From the NCBI GenBank assembly GCA_964016885.1, contig CAXHJY010001122.1, forward strand, positions 1 to 64,000: DNA of 64,000 nucleotides, read 5' to 3'. A model generated the notes under the pieces. It saw only the letters and a list, made by a program, of their open reading frames with translations, was not told the origin of the DNA and did no database searches. This stretch comes from Eledone cirrhosa (lineage: Eukaryota). The position numbers were made by a program, and so were the translations under genes. Position 1 is the first letter of the stretch; the number at the start of each line of letters is the position of its first letter. This document shows, piece by piece, positions 18,760-32,800 of the stretch.

Positions 18760-19941
18760 TTGATTTGGCCCATTAAGTGCACTGCGGCATTCATATTTCT
18801 CAACTTATTATAGCTAAGTCCGTACAACAAGCTTCACTTATCAAAAATGTTCTAGATTACGTGAATGAATTGCGGAAACTATATAGTACATCAGGGAAAT
18901 TTAAGCACGCGTATTTATCACATGATGAAGAAAATGAAGTATCGTCACCACGCACCTTAAAACCTGTGTGCTCTACCCGATGACTAACACTACTTTCTGC
19001 AGTCAAAGCTCTTCTTGACAATTATTCAGATGTCCCTATTTCTTTACAAGAGGCAACAAATGATTTTGGCACCAACATTGCATCCAGAGCTAATGTTATT
19101 CTTACGTGTCACTCTCCGGGCCAATGTGTTCTTGGATTGCACGTTGTAGTTCCATTACTTCAATTCCTTGAAGGATTGAACAAATATTTTCAAAGTACCA
19201 CCTTCAATCTAGGTAGCATGTTGCATAGTGTCAAACTGGTGCAGGAGGAGCTAAAAAAATCTACGCAGTGAAGAAAAATTTCAGAAGCTGTTCAATACAG
19301 CAGAAAAAATTATTTATCAACTCGATATTTCTCCTTTGGAGCTACCCAGGCAACGAAAAGTTCCTAAAAGATACGAGGAAGGAAGATCATTACAGAGTGC
19401 AGTATTTGCAGGTAGTGGATACTGCAATATCAAATTTGAAAGATTATTATTTTTCACAGGATTTAGCAGATTATGAAAAACTGAGCAATATTTTACTCAA
19501 TGGAAATGTTTGTGCTGAAGTGATCATGCACTATCCAGAGCTTGTTGAATGTTCTTTAAGGAACGAAATACTTTTTATAGAAATCATCATAATGGATCAT
19601 CTCTCGAGGATCATCGTAAAATATTCGGTGAAATGCAACCAGAAGTCCGTTGCAGGTTTCTAAATGTTGAGCGATTGCTAAGGCTACTTTTAATGTTTCC
19701 AACCAGTTCTTGTGAAGCTGAAAGATCTTTTAGCGCTCTGCAGAGACTCAAAACTTGGTTGCGATCGCCCATGACTCAGCAAAGGTTGAATCATATTCTA
19801 ATATGCCACATTCATAGAGATGTTTTGAAAAAGATTAGTTGTGAAGAAATTGCTAAATTATTTATTGACAAACGAGAAATTGCTAAATTATTTATTGACA
19901 AACGAGGCCCCTGGAAAAGAGCAACATTATTCATGAATTGA
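18760..19941 (+). pseudogene. hAT transposase relic (ZMYM1-like/Tip100-like), C-terminal half
   Basis: Motifs include VHCGIH (CxxH), LKPVCSTR(W) and PTSSCEAERSFSALQRLKTWLRSPMTQQRLNH (hAT dimerization domain). Stops and frameshifts are present. Confidence 0.88.
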
Positions 19942-20617
19942 ATTCACTGACCCGTTCATCACCGTGTTCGGCTTGACCTCGATATTTCAGCTCATTCTTA
20001 CTAACATTCGGTTTGCTTGACCCCATCTTCTCTTCATTGCATTTCCACGTCATTTATTCTATAACTAGGTTGTTGTTATTCCTATATAAACTGACTGTTT
20101 ATACTACGATCAAGTCTTATTATAGCCTTGGGCTTAAGGAAGTGCTTTTGTAGTCTTCAACAGTCATCCATTATAATTGCAGCACCATTACAAGAATATC
20201 ACAGTGATGCATTAAGGTAAGGGCGATAATTTGAGTAACTCTGACTAATAAGTAATGTCTTAACTTAGTATTATCGCGTCTTATCACTACGTGCTTAATT
20301 GATGAATTCCATTTCAAAATAGCACATTACTAGTCATTCTTGCATTAAGTTCTATTGAACTCGTTGCCTCATTGATCCTTTATTGAGTCTGCCACCTTAA
20401 TTCCCTCAAGCTAAGTTATTACTATTCCTACATGAAAGACTGGTAAATGTTCATATATAACTTGTCTCAACTTGGTTAGTATTTGTGTTTTTCATTGCAG
20501 TTGTGTTTATTACAAAGCGTTATTCCAGAACATTACTTGAAACTTTATCATACTGGAACAGGACTCATTATAGTAAATTCCTTATACATAATTTTATAGG
20601 CTTATATAGGCAAATCT

Positions 20618-22385
20618 TTGCGTAAGTTTACCAAACAGAAAATGGCCTCAGCAATGAAGAAAAAAGGCAGGCAGTACAGCGTTGATTACTTACGGTTCGG
20701 ATTCATCCCATCGCCATCGAACCACCTGTCACCCATGTGTTTAATTTTCAAGGAGTCCTTTTCGAATGAGGCGATGAAGCCATCGCGTTTGAGTAGACAC
20801 CTGGAGGTGAGGCACCCCGATAAGAGATATAAAGATTTAGCATACTTTCAGTCTCTTAGGGACCAATTGCAGGAAACAACACTAATTTCTTCTGCCTTTT
20901 CAAAAGTTGAAGCTTCAAATGTTGATGGACTTGTCGCATCTTACAATATTGCCAACATAATCGCAAAGTGTGGCCAGCCCCATTCCTTGGGTGAAACATT
21001 GGTAGCTCCTGTCATCTCAGAAGTTCTTTCAACAGTACTACATCAGAACCCGTTAAAGACCTTGAAATGTATTCTGTTGAGTAACGACTCAATAAGGAGA
21101 CGCATCGACGAAATGGCGGAAAATGTTGAACAAAAATTATGCAACATCTTGAAATCGACACAATTTGCTTTGCAACTTGATGAAAGCACACTTTCCGGGA
21201 ATCAGTCCTTACTACTGGGATACGTGCGATTTTTCCACCAAAACGAAATGCACGAGGAGCTTCTCTTCACTCTGAATCTAGCCACGGATACTAAAGGTGC
21301 CACCATCTTTGAATCTGTCAAGGGATACCTCGAAGAAAAAGAGATAACTCTTAACAATATTGTATCATGTGCTACCGACGGCGCAAGAGCAATGGTCGGC
21401 CTTCTGAAGATGGAAAATCCATCTGTATTTGCTGTTCATTGTGTCATTCATCGACAACACTTGGCTGCGAAGAAACTCAGCGAGCCGCTGAGCAAGTCTT
21501 TGCAGGTAGCCATTGATGTCATCAATTATATCAAACGCCATGCCCTCAATGAACGAATTTTCCGGCAACTGTGCGAAGATAATGACGAAGAATTCGTTGA
21601 GTTGTTCCTTCATACTGAAGTGAGGTGGCTTTCAAAGGGCAAGTGCCTTACTCGATTCTTTGAACTGTTCGACTCTATCATTGAGTTTCTTCGAGGACGC
21701 AACACAAAACTGTATTAAAAAAACCCTCGATGTGAGGCAAGACTGCGCCTACCTCGCCGACATCTTCGACAAATAAATAGCCTCATTATGGCTTTGCAGG
21801 GGGAGAAGATCACCTTGTTTAAAGCAAGGAATGCTGTGAAAATATTCCTGGCCAAATTGAAAGTCATCGAAAGGAATCTTTGTCAACGGGAATTCTATAA
21901 TTTTCCTAGTGTCGCCAATGTTCAAAACATTGTGAGTGATGACCAACTCCAAATGTATACCGCGCACCTCCTTGCACTACAAGACAACATGAGAGAACGG
22001 TTTGCAGACGAACATCCCAATGTGGATAGCAGATCCCTTCATAGCTAACGTCGACGATTTGGACGTTAAATTTCAGGAAGAATTAATTGAACTTCAGACA
22101 GATGACATTATCAAAATTAAATTTTCCAAAATAGGTGAACCCCTTTTTTGGATGCAAGAGGAAATTCAGCGTCGATTTCCACTCCTACATGCATAGGCTA
22201 AGAGATTTGCCTTTTCCTAGCTCATACTTAGTCGAGAGGGGTTTGGCGCTGTTTCCAGACTGCATAGTAAGGCTCGCAACCGCTACAATGTGATTGCACG
22301 TGGAGATCTCCGGCTACATCTTACGAAAATCCAGCCTGACGTAAAAGAGTTAGCTAAACTCCATGAAGCTCAAGGGTCCCATTGA
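20618..22385 (+). pseudogene. hAT transposase relic, Buster/Charlie (SCAND3/ZBED5-like) group
   Basis: Motifs include RQYSVDYLRFGF, MKPSRLSRHL..H (BED), FALQLDEST, TDGARAMVG, HCVIHRQHL, HTEVRWLSKG, SYLVERG and RGDLRLHLTKIQPD. It is frameshifted after 21718. No TIRs were recognised. Confidence 0.92.
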
Positions 22386-22652: not shown

Positions 22653-22848
22653 GGGGTGGTGGATTGGCAGTATCGGTAGAGGGTCGGACGCCATGCTTTG
22701 ACGCATAGAGTTACGGCCCTTTCCATTCTGAGTTCAAATCCTGTCGAGGTTAACTTTGCCTTTCATCCTTACGGGGTCGATAAAATAAAGTACCAGTAAT
22801 GTGCTATGTAATTTCTGGCCTTGTGCCAAAAGTAGAAACAATTATTAT
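22653..22848 (+). mobile_element. tRNA-derived SINE, full length
   Basis: A-box-like TGGCAGTATCGG, B box GAGTTCAAATCC, the conserved core and an (ATT)n tail are present. Confidence 0.9.
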
Positions 22849-22899: not shown

Positions 22900-23065
22900 C
22901 AGAATCAGTATTTTGAAAATTTGGTCACGTGTCAATTGTAATTGAAATCGAGTGCCGCGGCATACTGCGTTTAGCGGGTTTTAGACACACTGGACTAATG
23001 AAATATTTGTTAATACTGCGAATAAACTCTATTGTAGAGCCGATCCATGTTATTCTTCACCCATT

Positions 23066-23070
<5 letters not shown>
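22900..23070 (+). repeat. Penelope pLTR-like fragment
   Basis: It is similar to 14710-14850, contains AATAAA, and ends in (TA)n. Confidence 0.6.
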
Positions 23071-23103
<33 letters not shown>

Positions 23104-23107
<4 letters not shown>

Positions 23108-23330
23108 ATTTAATTATGGAGCGTGGATGGTTGGAGTTATAACTAATGTAGGCTAGGTTTTCATTATTTTTATGGAAAGACTCAATTAGTCCCATGTTTA
23201 AGTTAAGTATTACTTCTAGGAAGTTTGCTCTTTTTAAATTCTGCTCGATGTTTTTCCGTAAACAATCCATGCTTTGATTGTTCGTGTTTTTAGCTAAAAT
23301 GACCACATCGTCTCTATGAATTCCAAGCGA
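23104..23330 (-). mobile_element. Penelope-like RT fragment
   Basis: Translation gives GIHRDD (decayed YRDD), ANFLEVILNL and YISYNSNHP. Confidence 0.75.
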
Positions 23331-23334
23331 CCGT

Positions 23335-24304
23335 CCAGCTACACGTGGCAGAGAGATGTCACAGCGTGTTTAGGGCAGTGAACCAGTGGTATCTGAGGGA
23401 CGAGCTGCTAGAAAGGGCACCCTAAAAACCACTCAAAGAAGTGTGCTTAACCAAACAGAGAGAGAGGAAAGACTGTTATAAGGAGCGAAATATGACGATA
23501 AATTAATGGAGCCATAGACTCTCGTTATTCCCTGTCAATAATGTACTCAAAGGAAAAGGAATCCTGAGCTCTTTAAAATACAATATGTTGAAAGGGTAAC
23601 ACACTAGAGAGATATAGTGCGCCATCAATAAAACAGGGAAAACCAGCAGCTCGTCCCTCAGATACCACTGGTTCACTGCCCTAAACACGCTGTGACATCT
23701 CTCTTCCGCGTGTAGATGGACAGTCGCTTTAGATTCTCTTAGAGTTGTCTGGAACGTATAGTCTTGCACGCTGATGACCCATAACCTATTCCATTTCAGT
23801 CAACAATTTCCTAGCGAAAACAGATCTCTTTGGATTTATAGGCGTGTGTTATATAGTTATAGAGCTGCGTATATGCATTTTAATTTATATTTGTAATTAT
23901 TGTGTGTCTACCCAGCCTTCCATAGATTATAGATTCCATACACTGGTGGTTTTCCCTGTTTTATTGATGGAGCACTATCTCTCTCTAGTGTGTTACCTTT
24001 TCAACATATTGTATTTTAAAGAGCTCAGGATTCCTTTTCCTTTGAGCACATTATTGACATTATTGAAAGAGTGGTGGATTGGCAGTATCGATAGAGAGTC
24101 GGACGGCATGCTTTGACGCATAGAGTTACGGCCCTTGCCATTCTGAGTTCAAATCCCGCCGAGGTTAACTTTGCCTTTCATCCTTACGGGGTCGATAAAA
24201 TAAAGTACCAGTAATGTACTGGGTAATTGCTGGCCTTGTGCCAAAAGTAGAAACAATTATTGACAGGGAATAACGAGAGTCTATGGTTCCCTTAATTTAT
24301 CGTG

Positions 24305-24305
<1 letters not shown>
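23335..24305. repeat. Two nested inverted duplications (23335-23410 vs 23645-23720; about 23495-23645 vs about 23948-24305)
   Basis: Reverse-complement matches are directly visible. The second arm is interrupted by a SINE. Confidence 0.8.
24069..24261 (+). mobile_element. tRNA-derived SINE, full length, with target-site duplication
   Basis: ATTATTGACA occurs at 24050-24059 and 24256-24265. The empty site is visible in the inverted paralog at about 23530. Confidence 0.92.
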
Positions 24306-24335
<30 letters not shown>

Positions 24336-24373
24336 ATAAATGAAGAATTAGAAATAGAATTTAGGAATATCCG

Positions 24374-24470
24374 TCATCAGTTGTCTACTAGCCATCATAG
24401 GTATTTCTTCGCATTACAGACAATATACCTTCAGCTAGGGCGATACAATAACTAAAATAAGTTATTGGGA
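24374..24470 (-). ncRNA. Conserved structured RNA motif (hairpin plus pseudoknot with hammerhead-core nucleotides), copy B
   Basis: Pairings CUAGC/GCUAG, AGGUAU/AUACCU and UUGUCU/AGACAA are followed by CUGAUGA. It covaries with copy A. Function is inferred only. Confidence 0.5.
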
Positions 24471-24888
24471 TAAAAAGAGTTTGGTGGAGAAAGAGAGACA
24501 GGTAAACAGACACGAATGGTGAGGCAACGTAAAGAGAGGAAAAAATGAAAACATCAAGTCAATAATTCATTTCGAACATAAGAACAGGCGAATTTTGATA
24601 GGAGGTAAAGACACATCTAGGCCGTACGGATGTGAGCGAGGAAAAGGATGGCGTACGGTGTGGGACGATGTAGGAAGTGAGAGAGAGGGTGAGTGGCAGA
24701 GAGTGAGTGAGTGAAAGTGCGAGGAAGAGGCTAGCCGAGAGAGGGTGACTAGCAGAGCGGTGAGTGAAAGTAAGAGAGAGAAGGAGAGAGAAGGGAGAGA
24801 GAGAAAGAGGATAGCAGTAAGGGAAGAGAAAAAAGACAGTGCTCTACCACTACGGATATTACCTTCCAGTATTCTACCTCTATATATT

Positions 24889-24923
<35 letters not shown>

Positions 24924-24934
24924 GTATGTGTGTG

Positions 24935-25281
24935 TCAATGTGCGTGAACGACCAAGCTTAGACGAGTTGAGAAAGAAACTGGATATAAGAGGGATAAGTT
25001 GTGGTGTGCAGGAGAGAAGTCTGAGATTTTATGGACATATAATGCGCATAGAGGATGACCGATGGGTGAAGAAGTGCCAGGAAGTTCCAGTGGAGGGAAG
25101 ACGCAGTAGAGGTAGACCACGAAAAACATGGGCATAGGTGGTGAGAGCAGACCTCAGATCGCTGAAACTCACGGAGGAGATGACGAAGGACCGTGACGGG
25201 TGGAGAGATGCTGTTCTGAATAGAACCCGTCCAACCCTTGCAAGCAGGGAAAAGCGGACGTAAAATGATGATGATGATGAT
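24935..25281 (+). mobile_element. RTE-clade LINE 3' fragment
   Basis: Translation gives LRFYGHIMRIEDDRWVKKC..RGRPRKTW. It has a (GAT)n tail and is flanked by (TG)n/(TA)n. Confidence 0.88.
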
Positions 25282-25311
25282 ATATCTATGTATGTATGTA
25301 TATACATATAA

Positions 25312-25374
<63 letters not shown>

Positions 25375-25401
25375 AATGTATATATATATATATATATATA
25401 T

Positions 25402-25650
25402 AGTGGGAATACGAAGAAAGCAAGAACGGGAGGCGGTTTCGCTGTTTTGTTACTGTTTTCTCTTTTCTTCCCCTTTGCTTTCCTTCCCTCCTTCCTTCGT
25501 TTGCCCAATAACTTATCCAGTTATTGGCGCCCTGGGCGAGGTATCTTGTCTTTAAAGCGTAGAAATATCCGAGACCCCCAGTAGACAACTGATGAGGACA
25601 ATTCACCCCCCCCCCCCCCTCCAGTTCTTGCTTTCTTCGTATTCCCACTG
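25402..25650 (+). repeat. Penelope pLTR-like segment with inverted ends, containing structured RNA motif copy A (25505-25595)
   Basis: AGTGGGAATACGAAGAAAGCAAGAA at 25402 is inverted at 25625-25649. It sits between (TA)n tracts and shares the motif at 24374-24470. Penelope attribution is inferred from context. Confidence 0.55.
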
Positions 25651-25723
25651 CATTTAAAGTTACCTTAAATACCAACTACACAGCCATTTCTATTCTCCAT
25701 ATATTTCATCATATATATATACA

Positions 25724-25826: not shown

Positions 25827-27768
25827 TTTAAGTCCCCAGTCCCGGAAGAAGTTGATTAGTTCCGAGACTGGGGATTTAAAATGACCCTACAAACGTCCGT
25901 AACCCGAGTCTATTTCCTGGTTGTTACACTCAACCTCGAAAATTATCTGTACTACCCATACAGGAAACCAAACGACAACCTGCACTACATCCACCGCCGC
26001 TCTAACCATCCTAAAACATCACCAATAACCTGGTTAAAAACATCTCCCTCCGCATATCTCGTTTGTCCGCTAATGAGCAGATATTCGACGAACACGCGCC
26101 TCATTACAACCAGGCCCTCAAGCGGAGTGGCTTCCGGGAGGAAATATCCTTTTATCCAGCTTCCCTTATCGGAACCAGCAGGTGACACCGCCGCTCACGC
26201 AACGTAACGTGGTTCAATCCTCCCCACAATGCCGAGGTGGCAACACCTATCGGGAAAATCTTCTTTAGGATCCTCGAAAAACACTTTCTACTACAACACC
26301 GCTACCACAACATAATCAACAAAAACACTATCAAGCTCTCCTACAGCACCACACCTAACTTCGCACAAAACATCGTCTCCTCAAACAACAAAAAACTCAA
26401 CCCCTATGGAAGAAACAACCTAGACATTAGTGGAGAGCCGACCAGGAGGTGAAACTGCCCTGATAGATCTACGTGACCCCTCAACAACAGATGCTGAGAA
26501 CGTAACGTGATAGTTGCTAGTGCAACGTGAAGACGGACACCTCCAACAAAGCTTATATCGGATTAACCGCTTGTGACTTTAAGACCCGGTTCTACCAACA
26601 CCGACATACGTTCCGAAACCCGGTCCGGCGACATGCCACTACACTTTCGGGTCACATCTGGGACCTCCAAGATAATAATATAACTTACAATCTTACTTGG
26701 AGCTTACTGTCCAGAGCTAACTCTTACACGGGAGGACGCCGTCCGTGTAACTTATGCTCGGAGGAAACATTACAAATGCTGTTTACGAAGGATCAACTCC
26801 TAAACAAAAAAGACGAACTGGTAACTGCGTGCAAACACAGATTGCGTAAGATTTACCTCGCCCTCAAACCCCCTAACGATCCGGGTGGGTAGACAAGGGC
26901 TGAAACACCCCACTTGCCGAATAAGATAGGGGAAACTCCAGCTTACAAAGGGTGATGTACCTCTTTTCTTTTCCTGTATGTTTTCTTCTTCCCTTTGTCT
27001 CCCCCTATCACCTCCTTCCACCACCGATCTTCTTCCTCGTTCTTTTTTCCCCTTTCGCCTACCCCGGTGCATCCCATCGGACCTCTGTAGCCTCAGTACC
27101 CCCACCTCAGTAACTTAAAGACAGCATTGGCCGAATACGCTATACTAACTAATCATAACAGCTGCGTTAGAACCCAGAGATTTTGAATTACTTTTTACTA
27201 CCCAATTCTACAATTTCAATCATTCTTATTTAGTATCTTCTATTCTCAACTCATTGGCCGAAAAAGCAACACCAATTAAATATAGCAGCTGTTTTAGACT
27301 CTATAGTTTTTGTTTTTTATCACTTCTCACTATCCAACATTATATTTTTATATATCTTTCTCTTATTTTTTTTTTTGATTGTCTCCTAATCTCAATTGAT
27401 TTACCCATTCTATAACGTCCCTCCTCTATTTTCTCCAGAAACCTTTCTTCGCCTACCTCCTCTGGCCTAATTTCATACACAATCCTTAGAATTTGCCGTA
27501 TAGATTTCACTTTCAACGCTTGACCGGCTCCACCTACTCCCTCATTGTTCTACAGGCAAGTTCAGCCACCCCACCTCCCACCCACTGCCATGGTAGACTT
27601 ATTTGCGTTTACAACAAATTTTGACCAATCCTCTTGACAACTACAATCTTCCCATATAAGGAAGTACCCCTTGAAAAGTTCGGCTATTTATTTACCAGAC
27701 TAAAAATTCTAATTTAGTCCAGAAATAGCCGTCGAAACGGCTTGAGCTCTTCCGTCGGGGTCATACTT

Positions 27769-28380: not shown

Positions 28381-28781
28381 CAATAAACCAAGCTTTTTAA
28401 AACATGTCCATCATTAATCACGACAATTGTTTCTATACAGATGAGAGACGTGTATCTACGTTTAAACAATGAATCAATCTGTTACAAATAATAATTATTC
28501 GCATAGTATTAATATTCAAATGTATTTATTCGGAAGTGTGACAGAATAAATTATTTCTTTACAAGTAGCAAGATTATAAGCAAGCCATGAAAGAATCAAG
28601 AGAACAAATGGAAGCAGATAAATGCAAATATAGTGAAATATTATTTTAAGGCTTGAGACTTATAGCCATAAATCTTATAGCCATATATTTGTATCGCAGC
28701 TGTATCATATTTTAAAAGACGGATTGAGAGAAAAGTTTGTCATGCGATAATCAAAGAACGCACTCTAGAATGTGAAATCAT

Positions 28782-28957
28782 TATCGGTAGAGGGTCGGAC
28801 GCCATGCTTTGATGCATAGAGTTACGGCCCTTGCCATTCTGAGTTCAAATCCCGCCGAGGTTAACTTTGCCTTTCATCCTTACGGGATCGATAAAATAAA
28901 GTACCAGTAATACACTGGGTAATTGCTGGCCTTGTGCCAAAAGTAGAAACAATTATT
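28782..28957 (+). mobile_element. tRNA-derived SINE, slightly 5'-truncated
   Basis: It has the same B box, core and tail as 22653-22848. Confidence 0.9.
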
Positions 28958-29768
28958 GTTTATTCTTCTTACTCAGAGATAAACGAAAATCTGAAGTTGA
29001 ATCACTTTCACCATGATAGGAAGAGCAGTTGTTTTTATAACAGTATGGGATTAATGAATTCAAATATAGCGATGTTATTAAGCCAATTGTGGTATTTTTA
29101 CCCTTAAGCGACTGCTAAATTTATGTCCAGTGTTACTACGTTAGCATAGCAAATTGCATTACTTATGATTTAGAATAGTACTAGTTTAGTATTATGAGTG
29201 TGAATTGCAGCTGTTGAAAGATATAGTGAACAATTAAGTTGATATAATAGAATTAAACAGCTTTAAATTCACTTATATCATATATATAAACGCAAGCCAC
29301 TCTGAGATATCACCATACCAAGCAAGCTAGAGGTGTAAAATCTTAGACGGTTAACACAAGACCATACGTTAGTATGACCGTCTGTAGAAGCATAGCTTTA
29401 AAACACGCATGGATGGGTATATTCATATATACACATATGTACGCACGTATTTGTACATCCTCCTATGCATATACACGTGAATATATGCAGATACATAAGG
29501 TAGCTGTACATGCACACATGGTAATACGAAGTATGCAATTCAGTTAGTTCCAGTCATAAGACACACACCCGTATTCACACGCCGTGGTACATTTTGATAG
29601 TTATGTATTTATGCATTTCAGTGTGAGGATGTCGAAATTAACCTGTCCTAATATCTAGGTAATAACAACAGTTAAAGTTAGGGTATGCTAGATAATGTAA
29701 GATTATAGATGTACCTGGGCCTCGAATGCTCACTTTGGTAACAGCAGCAGTAATCCACTGTATACAAT

Positions 29769-29825
<57 letters not shown>

Positions 29826-29827
<2 letters not shown>

Positions 29828-32800
29828 TCATCATCATCGTTTTACGTCCGCTTTTCCCTGCTTGCAAGGGTTGGACGGGTCCTATTCAGCACATCATCTC
29901 TCCACTTGTCACGGTCCTTCGACATCTCCTCGGTGAGTTTCAGCAATCTGTGGTCTGCTCTCAGCACCTCCGCCCATGTTTTTCGTGGTCTACCTCTACT
30001 GCGTCCTTCCTTCTACTGGGATTTCTTGGCACTTCTTTACCCAGCGGTCATCCTCCATGCGCATCGCGTGTCCATACCATCTCATCCTTCTCTCCTGCAC
30101 TCCTGCACACCACAACTTATCCCTCTTATACCCAGTTTCTTTCGTAACTCGTCTATGCTTGGTCGTTCACGCACATTAACATTGCACATCCAACCGAGCA
30201 TACTTGCTTCATTTCCCTTCAGCCGTCGCATATCTTCTGCAGTTGCTGCCCATATCTCACTACCATGCAGCATCGTGCATCTCACATAACCATCGTTTCG
30301 TACGCAGGGAGAAACCTTCTTTGTCAACAGAGGAAGCAGCTCTCTAAACTTCTTCCAACGCGTCCTTATTCTAGATACTATGGCCTCGGAAGACTCCTCT
30401 CCCATGATAATCTGATCACCTAGGTACCGGAAGCTATCAACCACTTCTATAGAACCCACCTGCATTGGAAAAATATGTCTATCACTGCGATTACTACTGC
30501 CAACTTTCCTTGTACATCTACTGCATACGTAGTTTTGCCTACCTGTTAGTTTTCCTGCTATCCCACTACATCTCTTATGTACCCAAGATCTGAATTGCGT
30601 ACATTTTATGGAATTTATGCCAGTTCCTTTCCTACATATCGAACATGGCCATTTTCCTGACTGAATTAGAGTTTTGTCCTCTTTTCTACTCATCAACACT
30701 TTTGTCTTAGATATGTTCTCTCAGTCCTCTTGATTCCAACTGCTGTTTCCATAGCCAGAATTTATTCTCTAGCTCCTCTACTGATTCTGCTATAAGAACC
30801 AGATCGTCAGCATAGAGAAGTTCCCATGGACAGCCAGTCTTAAACTCCTCTGCTCTGCTATGGCTTGGAGGACTGTAATGAACATGAGCGGGCTGGAGAC
30901 CGACCCCTGATGTACTCCTACTTGTATCTGGAATTCCTCACTAAACTCTATTCCTACCCTCACTTTACTGACAGCACCTCTGTACAAAGCTTGCACTGTC
31001 CTCACAAGCCATTCCTCAACACCCAGCTTCCTTAGGGACCACCATATGACAGATCGGGGTACCCTATCAAAGGCCTTCTCTTGGTCAACAAAAGCTAAGT
31101 ATAGTGGCTTATTTTTCTCTAAGAACCTCTTGTAGTTGCCTCACTAAGAAGAGGGCATATATTCTACTTTTGCCAGGCACAAAACCAAACTGCATCTCAT
31201 CTAGTTTGACTCTTTCTCTAATTAGTTGCGCTAATATCCTTTCTGCCACTCTCATGACCTGATCCATCAGTTTTATGCCCCTATTATTGCTCCTCTCCAG
31301 AGCATCCACTTTACCTTTGTAGCAATTTTTGAGAATACTGCTGCACCAGTCTTTGGGTTTGACACCGCCGTATATAGCCTGATTGATGATGCGTGCAACC
31401 AGTTTAGTGTCTACGTCCCCTGACGCCTTCAGCATCTCAGCAACTATCCCCGACGGTCCAGCGGCCTTACCATTTTTCATTTCCTTAATCGCCTCTTGGA
31501 CCCTATATTCGTCAATCTCAATAGCTGGTCCCTCTGTCGGATCTACTGGAGGTCATTTCTCTCTCTCCCATTCATTCGTTCTCCACATTCATCAGTGTCT
31601 CATAATGACATTTCCAGGCCTCCTTTTTCTGATCTTTCGTGACACTAAGTACACCGGCATCATTCCGGATACATTTATCTCCAACAACATCCTGATTTGC
31701 ACTGACACACTGCCTTACAATGCGGAACACCGCACGTCTCTGATCTCCCCGTCGCAGAACATTGGCAAACCTCGTACTCTCAGACTCCCTGCGTGCTAAC
31801 TACACCTGACGTCTAGCTTCTCTCTTAGCGGCTGTATATCCTTCTCTACTCCCACCATTTTTCAGAGCATTCTATGCTAGTCTTTTGTCTATAATGGCCC
31901 TATCTACCATGCTGTTCCACCACCAGGTCACTCTGTCTGGTTGGAGCTCTGCTCTAGCCACAAGTTTCGTCAGTAGCCTGCAGTAAGTTGCCACGTAAGA
32001 AATTCCAGCTATCATCTATGTCATACAATTCTAAATCGTCTTCTTTTTCGTCATACACATCTTGAAGGGCTTTCCTAAATTTGTATTTTAGTTTTAGTAA
32101 AAGGTCTTTTAACTTCTAGACCTTTCTTCTCTATACCTTCCTGTATGTCTCATTCCGTCTCTTGCTTACTGCGATATCACTAACGACTTACCTATACTAT
32201 GGGGCACATTCTTCCCCGGGGTATGCCTTGGTATTTGACACCATCTGTCCCACTGCCTAACTAGCAAGAAGTCAATCTGGCTTATGTGCTCGCCTGATTT
32301 GTAGGTTATTAGGTGGTTGGCAGGTTTCTGGATGTTAGTGTTGCAAATGGTTAGTGCACTTGCATCACCAAATTCAAGAAGTCTCACTCCTTCTTCATTT
32401 TTTGAGCTGTAACCATCCCCACCATGCACCCCATTGTAACCATCTCGGAGATGTCCAACATGCCCATTGACGTTACCTACTAGCATAACGATGTCTCCGT
32501 CCTCTGACATTGCGGCTGTTTGTAAAAGTTGCTCGTAAAAGCAGTCTTTCTCTTCTTTACCTAGTCCTGCCTGAGGAGCATAGGCAGAGATTATTGTCCG
32601 TAGTCTCTTGCCTACAACTAATCTAAGCTTAATTATTCTATTACTAACTCTAACTACCTCTATTGTCTTATTGATCCATCTCTCAGCCAGGAAAATGCCC
32701 ACTCCCTCTAACCCATCATCATTATCCACCCAGACAAGCTTATAAGTAAAATGTTTTCCTGCGATTAGTCTCGCAGAGGGACCTCTCCACCTCACCTCTT

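Follow-up and report, generated by a model that had tools for sequence, protein, structure and literature searches.

Repeats of Eledone cirrhosa carry a six-helix RNA with a rearranged hammerhead core, a likely self-cleaving ribozyme of Naiad-type Penelope-like retroelements

Two copies of an RNA motif lie in a stretch of 64,000 nucleotides (nt) from Eledone cirrhosa (assembly GCA_964016885.1, contig CAXHJY010001122.1, positions 1 to 64,000; hereafter the window), copy A at 25532-25595 on the plus strand and copy B at 24438-24374 on the minus strand. They belong to a conserved six-helix RNA in which every element of the hammerhead core is present but rearranged, and sequence comparison makes it likely that this RNA serves Naiad-type Penelope-like retroelements, and non-coding tandem repeats probably derived from them, as a self-cleaving ribozyme. 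From 5' to 3' the order is P0, a hairpin, a stem II strand, the bridging helix, stem III-UH-stem I (block S), a short linker, stem II-GAAA-stem III (block G), a bend made by a kink-turn consensus or a bulge, the bridging helix again, stem I-CUGANGA, and P0. The original prediction for this DNA described a hammerhead core whose non-circular order would force pseudoknots, and the S-G-C order and the covarying helices reported here bear this out. Both copies read exactly as given there, with a 6-bp stem I, GAAA, CUGAUGA and equal 10-nt linkers; two compensatory changes in the outer helix are present, as is a CAAUAAC/GUUAUUG hairpin upstream of each copy. The cuts predicted by analogy with hammerheads, 3' of C25545 in copy A and 3' of A24424 in copy B, agree with the sequence.

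All six helices covary. In a set of 28 hand-chosen representatives with 33 pairs, 88.9% of cells were paired and 26 of the 33 pairs showed two-sided changes, a level reached by none of 500 shuffles, while slid controls were 30-45% paired; covariation across genome homologs, proposed as a test when the motif was first described, is thus present. Pairing was 99% in stem I, 100% in stem III, 85% in stem II and 87% in the hairpin. Two-sided changes were found in 6/6 pairs of stem I, 3/5 of stem III, 2/4 of stem II and 5/6 of the bridging helix, counts that are lowered because some alignment rows are one column off register.

Two helices had escaped the original prediction. It saw no stem II, which in fact forms with a strand 5' of the outer helix. 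The partner test was run on 116 copies, after 7 of 123 parsed copies truncated into TA runs had been dropped. A stem II partner of at least 4 bp lies upstream of the bridging helix in 96 of the 116 (shuffles: mean 53, maximum 66) and downstream, after CUGANGA, in 7. The closing helix P0 had also been missed; it is formed by the bases that follow CUGANGA and a strand located 5' of the hairpin, with at least 5 bp in 79 of the 116 copies (shuffled mean 56.5, maximum 69). When own-group partners were compared with swapped ones over 20 draws of randomly picked members from 14 stem-I groups, own-group pairing was better, with a median p of about 0.001 for stem II, <0.0005 for the bridging helix and 0.001 for P0; the worst draws gave 0.032, 0.0005 and 0.028, respectively. 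The kink-turn pattern seen in the window holds for part of the repeats: its consensus, a 3-nt bulge plus tandem G-A/A-G between stem III and the bridging helix, occurs in 67 of 127 parsed copies, but it is absent from families G, J and others, which have a bulge or small loop instead.

Six block orders have been named for hammerheads, and type SGC, which is of metatranscriptome origin, cleaves where predicted, for which it requires stems I-III and a further helix that bridges stems I and II (Eckert, Friedrich, Weinberg and Weinberg, 2023, PMC10085705). The row of SGC-3, which was assayed, begins with the site, followed by stem I, a short linker, stem II and GAAA, continues with stem III, a bridging strand and stem I, and closes with CUGAUGA, a stem II strand and a bridging strand (PMC10085705). 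The motif described here shares with type SGC the order site-GAAA-CUGANGA, the short linker between stems I and II, the bridging helix and the optional base after CUGANGA. In type SGC, however, the stem II and bridging strands lie 3' of CUGANGA, whereas here both stand at the 5' end and connect to stem III, and P0 and the hairpin interrupt a block that Eckert et al. assumed to be unsplittable. These repeats lack the intact block C of type SGC, with the stem II strand directly 3' of CUGANGA.

Judged by its sequence, the motif is therefore the type SGC circle opened just after CUGANGA, with the last two strands moved to the front. This opening splits the CUGANGA block and lets both RNA ends exit via stem II, and it means that the "outer stem" of the original prediction was misread and is the helix bridging stems I and II, as in type SGC. 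The order has already been published as type SGC and is thus not new in itself. What is new is the wiring, that is, the upstream stem II strand and the extra helix and hairpin right after CUGANGA, and to that extent the proposal of a new topology stands. The split block contradicts the assumption under the six-type scheme (PMC10085705). Types I, II and III (CGS, GSC and SCG) were rejected for this motif, since the order S-G-C is non-circular; the ordinary type III fold through a downstream GAAA, first raised as a possible refutation, can be drawn in 1 of 127 copies.

The core words CUGANGA, GAAA and UH are all present in both window copies, and variation among the repeats follows hammerhead rules. 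A pattern with G at the cleavage position gave 183 matches, with slightly narrower gaps, versus 16,141 for A, C or U. N7 is free (U 104, C 13, A 9 and G 1 of 127). In the eight groups closest to that of the window, 55 of 62 copies pair position 11.1 with the base that follows CUGANGA (C-G, U-A, U-G, A-U), and in families G and J a canonical G10.1-C11.1 is supplied by the upstream strand. Most families thus keep the 10.1-11.1 pair through a downstream or an upstream partner. The lack of G10.1-C11.1 that had been noted earlier is confirmed for both window copies and does not extend to families G and J.

Exact-pattern searches of the 3.0-Gb genome, each run against a reversed-pattern control, place the motif in an abundant repeat. 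The strict pattern built on the two copies gave 619 matches and none in the control, so that they are not a chance pair. Three looser, disjoint patterns gave 16,141 (control 0), 361 (control 27) and 2,416 (control 290) matches. The four patterns together amount to about 19,500 matches versus 317 in controls, a total that counts a few copies twice, takes in some that are truncated and leaves out mutated ones. The repeat is dispersed, non-coding, often tandem, about 520-800 nt long and sits in (TA)n; 14 units measured from tandems span 518-804 nt, and their longest ATG frame is 107 aa. Unit bodies had no alignable sequence in 36 of 91 family pairs, and the motif was kept nonetheless. Copies are partial tandems with inverted 5' pieces and family-specific end points. 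In families E and F the 3' end falls at either of two points about 47 nt from each other, which resembles the Penelope tail, and locus L083 holds about five tandem units. A satellite-like array of about 90 kb (L137; G000:C1:81.54-81.64 Mb) contains 15 motifs, mostly 512-518 nt apart; many of its units are mismatched at the first stem I pair. Family J (L177-L196; 2,392 first-look candidates) is short, at about 330 nt, and its core is the most canonical, with a 6-bp stem II and G10.1-C11.1. Family N (L147, L151, L163) and several single matches of the 2,416-match pattern did not fit the parser and were left out; in these three loci a repeated GAAA...CUGAGGA arrangement, which may be incidental, lies opposite a frame resembling a long interspersed nuclear element (LINE).

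Partial tandems, inverted 5' pieces, (TA)n targets and tails are hallmarks of non-autonomous Penelope-like elements (PMC8557442, PMC11167929), and the repeats are probably non-coding tandem derivatives of Naiad-type Penelope-like retroelements. Naiads have been reported to lack canonical hammerheads, although some are tagged "HHR_core" (10 mentions) or "HHR_half_core" (8) (Craig et al., 2021, PMC8557442). We parsed their consensus text (54 Naiad entries) by eye through the places of the core words, covering 60 of 62 places for CTGATGA, 19 of 23 for CTGACGA, 19 of 25 for CTGAGGA and 43 of 43 for CTGAAGA; a match interrupted by a line break may have been missed. The split fold, complete with P0, the hairpin, a stem II made by an upstream strand and the bridging helix, was recognized in Naiad_Amil, Aacu, Anas, Plae, Obim, Ovul and Esco, of which the first three are near-identical corals and the last has a weak stem II; the hosts are corals, an acanthocephalan, octopus and squid. 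It also appears in three unnamed passages and in one more with a 2-bp stem I. Judged by eye, the octopus Naiad consensus ends share with subfamily B, to which copy B belongs, the six helices, the kink-turn consensus and a 10-nt hairpin-loop segment. The link to Penelope-like elements that had been suggested for the window is therefore borne out by (TA)n, partial tandems, inverted 5' pieces and Naiad 3' ends.

The (TA)n targets, the partial tandems with inverted 5' pieces and the tails are as in Naiads (PMC8557442), whereas the units described here, unlike Naiads, have no long reading frame. The order C-S-G was read by eye in Naiad_Smim, three Nbra entries (Naiad-1/2/3_Nbra) and two unnamed passages, so the 3' ends of spider and nematode Naiads appear to be of type CSG, which was published from only two metagenome sequences. 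The 3' ends of several arthropod Naiads have CUGACGA with GAAA upstream, in an arrangement that did not parse. The oyster Naiad entry has a different, GC-rich 3' end, in which no hammerhead core was seen by eye.

Three motif patterns found no intact Naiad frame (N-terminal GIY-YIG, CxC, DKA motif, reverse transcriptase) in this genome. The motif pattern from the octopus consensus had no genome match, nor had the reverse transcriptase and GIY-YIG patterns; the DKA pattern had 8 matches versus 21 in its control, with no intact frame and only possible short remnants in those examined. No cluster of reverse transcriptase motifs was found beside any ribozyme motif. This absence fits the remark that cephalopod Naiads are remnants (PMC8557442). 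The Penelope-type frames that do occur near copies (window 25860-26892, L045, L081, L042) carry their endonuclease at the C-terminus and do not adjoin the motif units directly; in the window and in L081, frame and unit are separated by a (TA)n run.

Other hammerheads of retroelements differ from this one. Canonical type I hammerheads of Penelope-like elements also lie in a terminal repeat, but they have the order CGS and a weak palindromic stem III, and dimers have been suggested as their active form (Cervera and de la Pena, 2014, PMC4209133), whereas the present motif has a stable stem III and a doubly pseudoknotted core. Retrozymes without long terminal repeats (non-LTR) are likewise non-coding tandem units with one hammerhead each and are proposed to derive from Penelope pseudo-LTRs; they were defined and searched for as type I (bioRxiv 10.64898/2026.07.22.740005), and type I descriptors miss the present units because their permutation is non-circular. 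Rfam at gathering thresholds gave no match in the window, and at E up to 5 it returned no hammerhead on four loci, even for one in L081 that looks canonical by eye. A literature search that did not reach most subscription journals turned up no report of permuted hammerheads from either Naiads or animal genomes, and "type-SGC" appeared only in the 2023 paper (PMC10085705).

If the RNA does cleave, the cut would fall 3' of UH, and only once the last strand, with CUGANGA and P0, has been transcribed. Unit-length RNAs of 520-800 nt might then be freed from tandem or read-through transcripts and possibly circularized, and a Penelope-type reverse transcriptase/endonuclease acting in trans could copy them into (TA)n. 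Genomic 5' ends give a weak hint of such cleavage. Among 11 same-strand upstream partial copies in family B, five start between -14 and +9 of the predicted site and one at +43. Four partial family-B copies (three same-strand upstream, one inverted) begin at -4 to +2, one of them without (TA)n microhomology. The reference units in this comparison come partly from the same loci, and the TATA before the site is itself microhomology to (TA)n. Contigs of two sequencing runs of unknown kind contained the sequence but revealed neither start nor end sites, and they do not bear on expression.

Several observations weigh against an active ribozyme of this origin. The remaining 5 of the 11 upstream partial copies start 77-159 nt upstream of the predicted site, and tandem copies that extend past it imply that some templates escape cutting. 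To a large extent the search patterns themselves impose the invariance of CUGANGA, GAAA and UH; the 361-match pattern, the G-at-cleavage pattern and the DNA-based sets relax this requirement only partly. Relatedness among copies can inflate the covariation counts, and the window copies, when folded singly, have unremarkable energies (z of -1.3 to -1.5). With no intact Naiad frame, the parent link rests on a by-eye reading of published text. The connection of stem III to the bridging helix was flagged as not obviously compatible with the crystal structure (PMC10085705), and tying both stem III strands to the bridging helix may strain the fold.

The window copies themselves are doubtful catalysts. 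Their stem-I group has a 10.1-11.1 pair in 11 of 37 copies (otherwise A-G 17, A-C 8, G-G 1), which suggests relaxed selection on catalysis. The pair is missing from copy A (A-G) and copy B (A-C), so that both may be weak or dead, and P0 of copy A is damaged as well. They are aged members, probably slower than intact families or inactive, and the chance that at least one of them cleaves alone in vitro seems to us slightly below even. The main risk to our interpretation is that the window subfamilies, or the closed fold generally, cleave poorly without help. The metazoan Penelope hammerheads have low activity alone in vitro (PMC4209133), and that of an Anolis Penelope-like element cleaved only with protein and was dispensable for insertion in vitro (PMC11167929).

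The same data could mean that a hammerhead-derived fold is kept as a binding or positioning signal for a Penelope-type protein, or that it cuts only with protein. Besides the Anolis and metazoan precedents, the fixation of 10.1-11.1 mismatches in amplified subfamilies A and B and the tandems that run through the predicted site are in its favor. Yet position 17 avoids G while N7 is free, as catalysis predicts, a 10.1-11.1 pair is kept in most families by either of two routes, and the four family-B starts next to the predicted cut speak against it too. We regard this explanation as unlikely.

It is far less probable that the helices do not all form in one molecule, and that neighboring units dimerize in trans or a single unit switches between two folds. 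Units are often tandem, minimal Penelope hammerheads have been proposed to be dimers (PMC4209133), and the closed wiring may be strained. However, stem III is a stable, non-palindromic helix of 5-6 bp, and monomeric type SGC, with a direct link from stem III to the bridging helix, does cleave (PMC10085705). A box C/D-like kink-turn element, one resembling a selenocysteine insertion sequence (SECIS), or an ordinary type III hammerhead is hardly credible: the kink-turn consensus is found in 67 of 127 copies and CUGAUGA holds what we take to be box C-like and box D-like words, but N7 varies (CUGACGA, CUGAAGA, CUGAGGA), which box C would not tolerate, the tandem G-A does not come from CUGAUGA and is missing from G, J and further families, type III can be folded in only 1 of 127 copies, and the motif has no Rfam match.

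A self-cleaving ribozyme of Naiad-type elements thus remains our preferred explanation. With some reserve, we lean towards a joint extension of it. The RNA would be a seventh permutation, a monomer-active closed cage in which stems I-III and a bridging helix join two junctions, with a kink-turn bend in octopus-like families, and this cage would be the genuine ribozyme of Naiads; split-SGC and CSG would be alternative openings, in different members of the clade, of a single ancestral fold that was already non-circular. If the ribozyme assignment is correct, it closes a published gap, as Naiads dominate many invertebrate genomes and were reported without canonical hammerheads; the role of hammerheads in Penelope-like elements would become testable in a clade thought to have none. 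The six-permutation scheme assumes that CUGANGA and its stem II strand are contiguous, and since this is broken here, current descriptors miss the whole class. Non-circular permutations would move from unidentified metatranscriptome contigs to animal chromosomes, with about 19,000 exact-pattern copies and many independent stem sequences for work on structure and evolution. Should the cage also be real, non-circular hammerheads would be among the most abundant ribozymes in many invertebrate genomes and form a retrozyme class of their own.

Copies A and B do not form a local pair within the window: each is an insertion of its own, from a different subfamily. Their elements can be aligned only over about 100 nt around the motif (74-77% identity), and the 16-mer that closes the motif on its 3' side is present at two places in the window, free of mismatches. 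The copy A element (25438-25712, plus strand) is a 5'-truncated subfamily A unit that ends in (TA)n and is 88% identical to a tandem unit of L022; full subfamily A units are about 560-580 nt, non-coding and CT-rich. A short inverted piece of the same element, detected by blastn, adjoins its 5' end at 25402-25436 on the minus strand, as is typical of Penelope-like insertions. The P0 5' strand of copy A (25500-25505) faces 25596-25601 with 2 of 6 pairs mismatched, where other members of the family form 6-7 bp. After P0 comes a hairpin of 7 bp (25506-25526; sequence, folding and the covariation alignment), then the upstream stem II strand (25527-25530), which pairs with 25557-25560 with one G-U and is identified by covariation, and the 5' strand of the helix bridging stems I and II (25532-25536, partner 25577-25581; sequence and covariation). 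The remaining parts are read from the sequence: the non-bulged G-A of the kink-turn consensus (25538-25539); block S (25540-25551), with the stem III strand, U-H and the stem I strand; block G (25552-25574), with a 5-nt linker, the stem II strand, A25561 (position 11.1, unpaired), GAAA at 25562-25565, stem III, the 3-nt bulge and G-A; and the 3' part (25577-25601), with the bridging 3' strand, stem I (25583-25588), CUGAUGA (25589-25595) and the P0 3' strand.

The copy B element (24305-24839, minus strand) is a near-full subfamily B unit that also ends in (TA)n and is 92% identical to L029/L039. Subfamily B has 40 scored near-full-length matches including the window copy, the others being at 91-93%. 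In copy B, again on the minus strand, P0 (24472-24468) forms 5 bp with 24372-24368, the hairpin spans 24467-24446 (sequence and minimum-energy fold), the upstream stem II strand (24443-24440) pairs with 24412-24409, and the bridging strands are 24438-24434 (5') and 24392-24388 (3'). Block S (24430-24418) comprises the stem III strand (24430-24425), A24424 and stem I (24423-24418). The 3' part (24417-24368) holds the linker, stem II strand, A24408, GAAA (24407-24404), stem III and the bridging 3' strand, and ends with stem I (24386-24381), CUGAUGA (24380-24374) and the P0 3' strand (24372-24368). A24408, position 11.1, faces C24373 as a mismatch. In the RNAfold minimum-energy fold of copy B, P0, the hairpin, the bridging helix and stem III are all formed.

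The surroundings are rich in broken elements. After copy A, a broken Penelope-like frame (25860-26892, plus strand), with relatives in L041 and L045, holds the C-terminus of a reverse transcriptase followed by a GIY-YIG-like region; no CUGANGA was found on the plus strand of its 3' region. A Penelope-like reverse transcriptase fragment at 23010-23369 (minus strand) is 37% identical to this frame over 48 aa, and Pfam gave nothing at cut-off on four Penelope fragments of the window. In L081, what looks by eye like a canonical minimal type I hammerhead lies at about 1062-1106 on the plus strand, within the 3' region of a Penelope-like element that has its GIY-YIG at the C-terminus. Broken DNA-transposase-like frames, presumably hAT-like by their motifs, lie at 20600-22048 and 18984-19941 (both plus strand). 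RTE-like LINE fragments occupy 29696-31799 and 24935-25265, the latter between the two ribozyme copies. A repeat of about 190 nt resembling a short interspersed nuclear element (SINE), 88-95% identical between copies, recurs at 22656-22846, 24071-24261, 28767-28957 and elsewhere, and is present in most loci.
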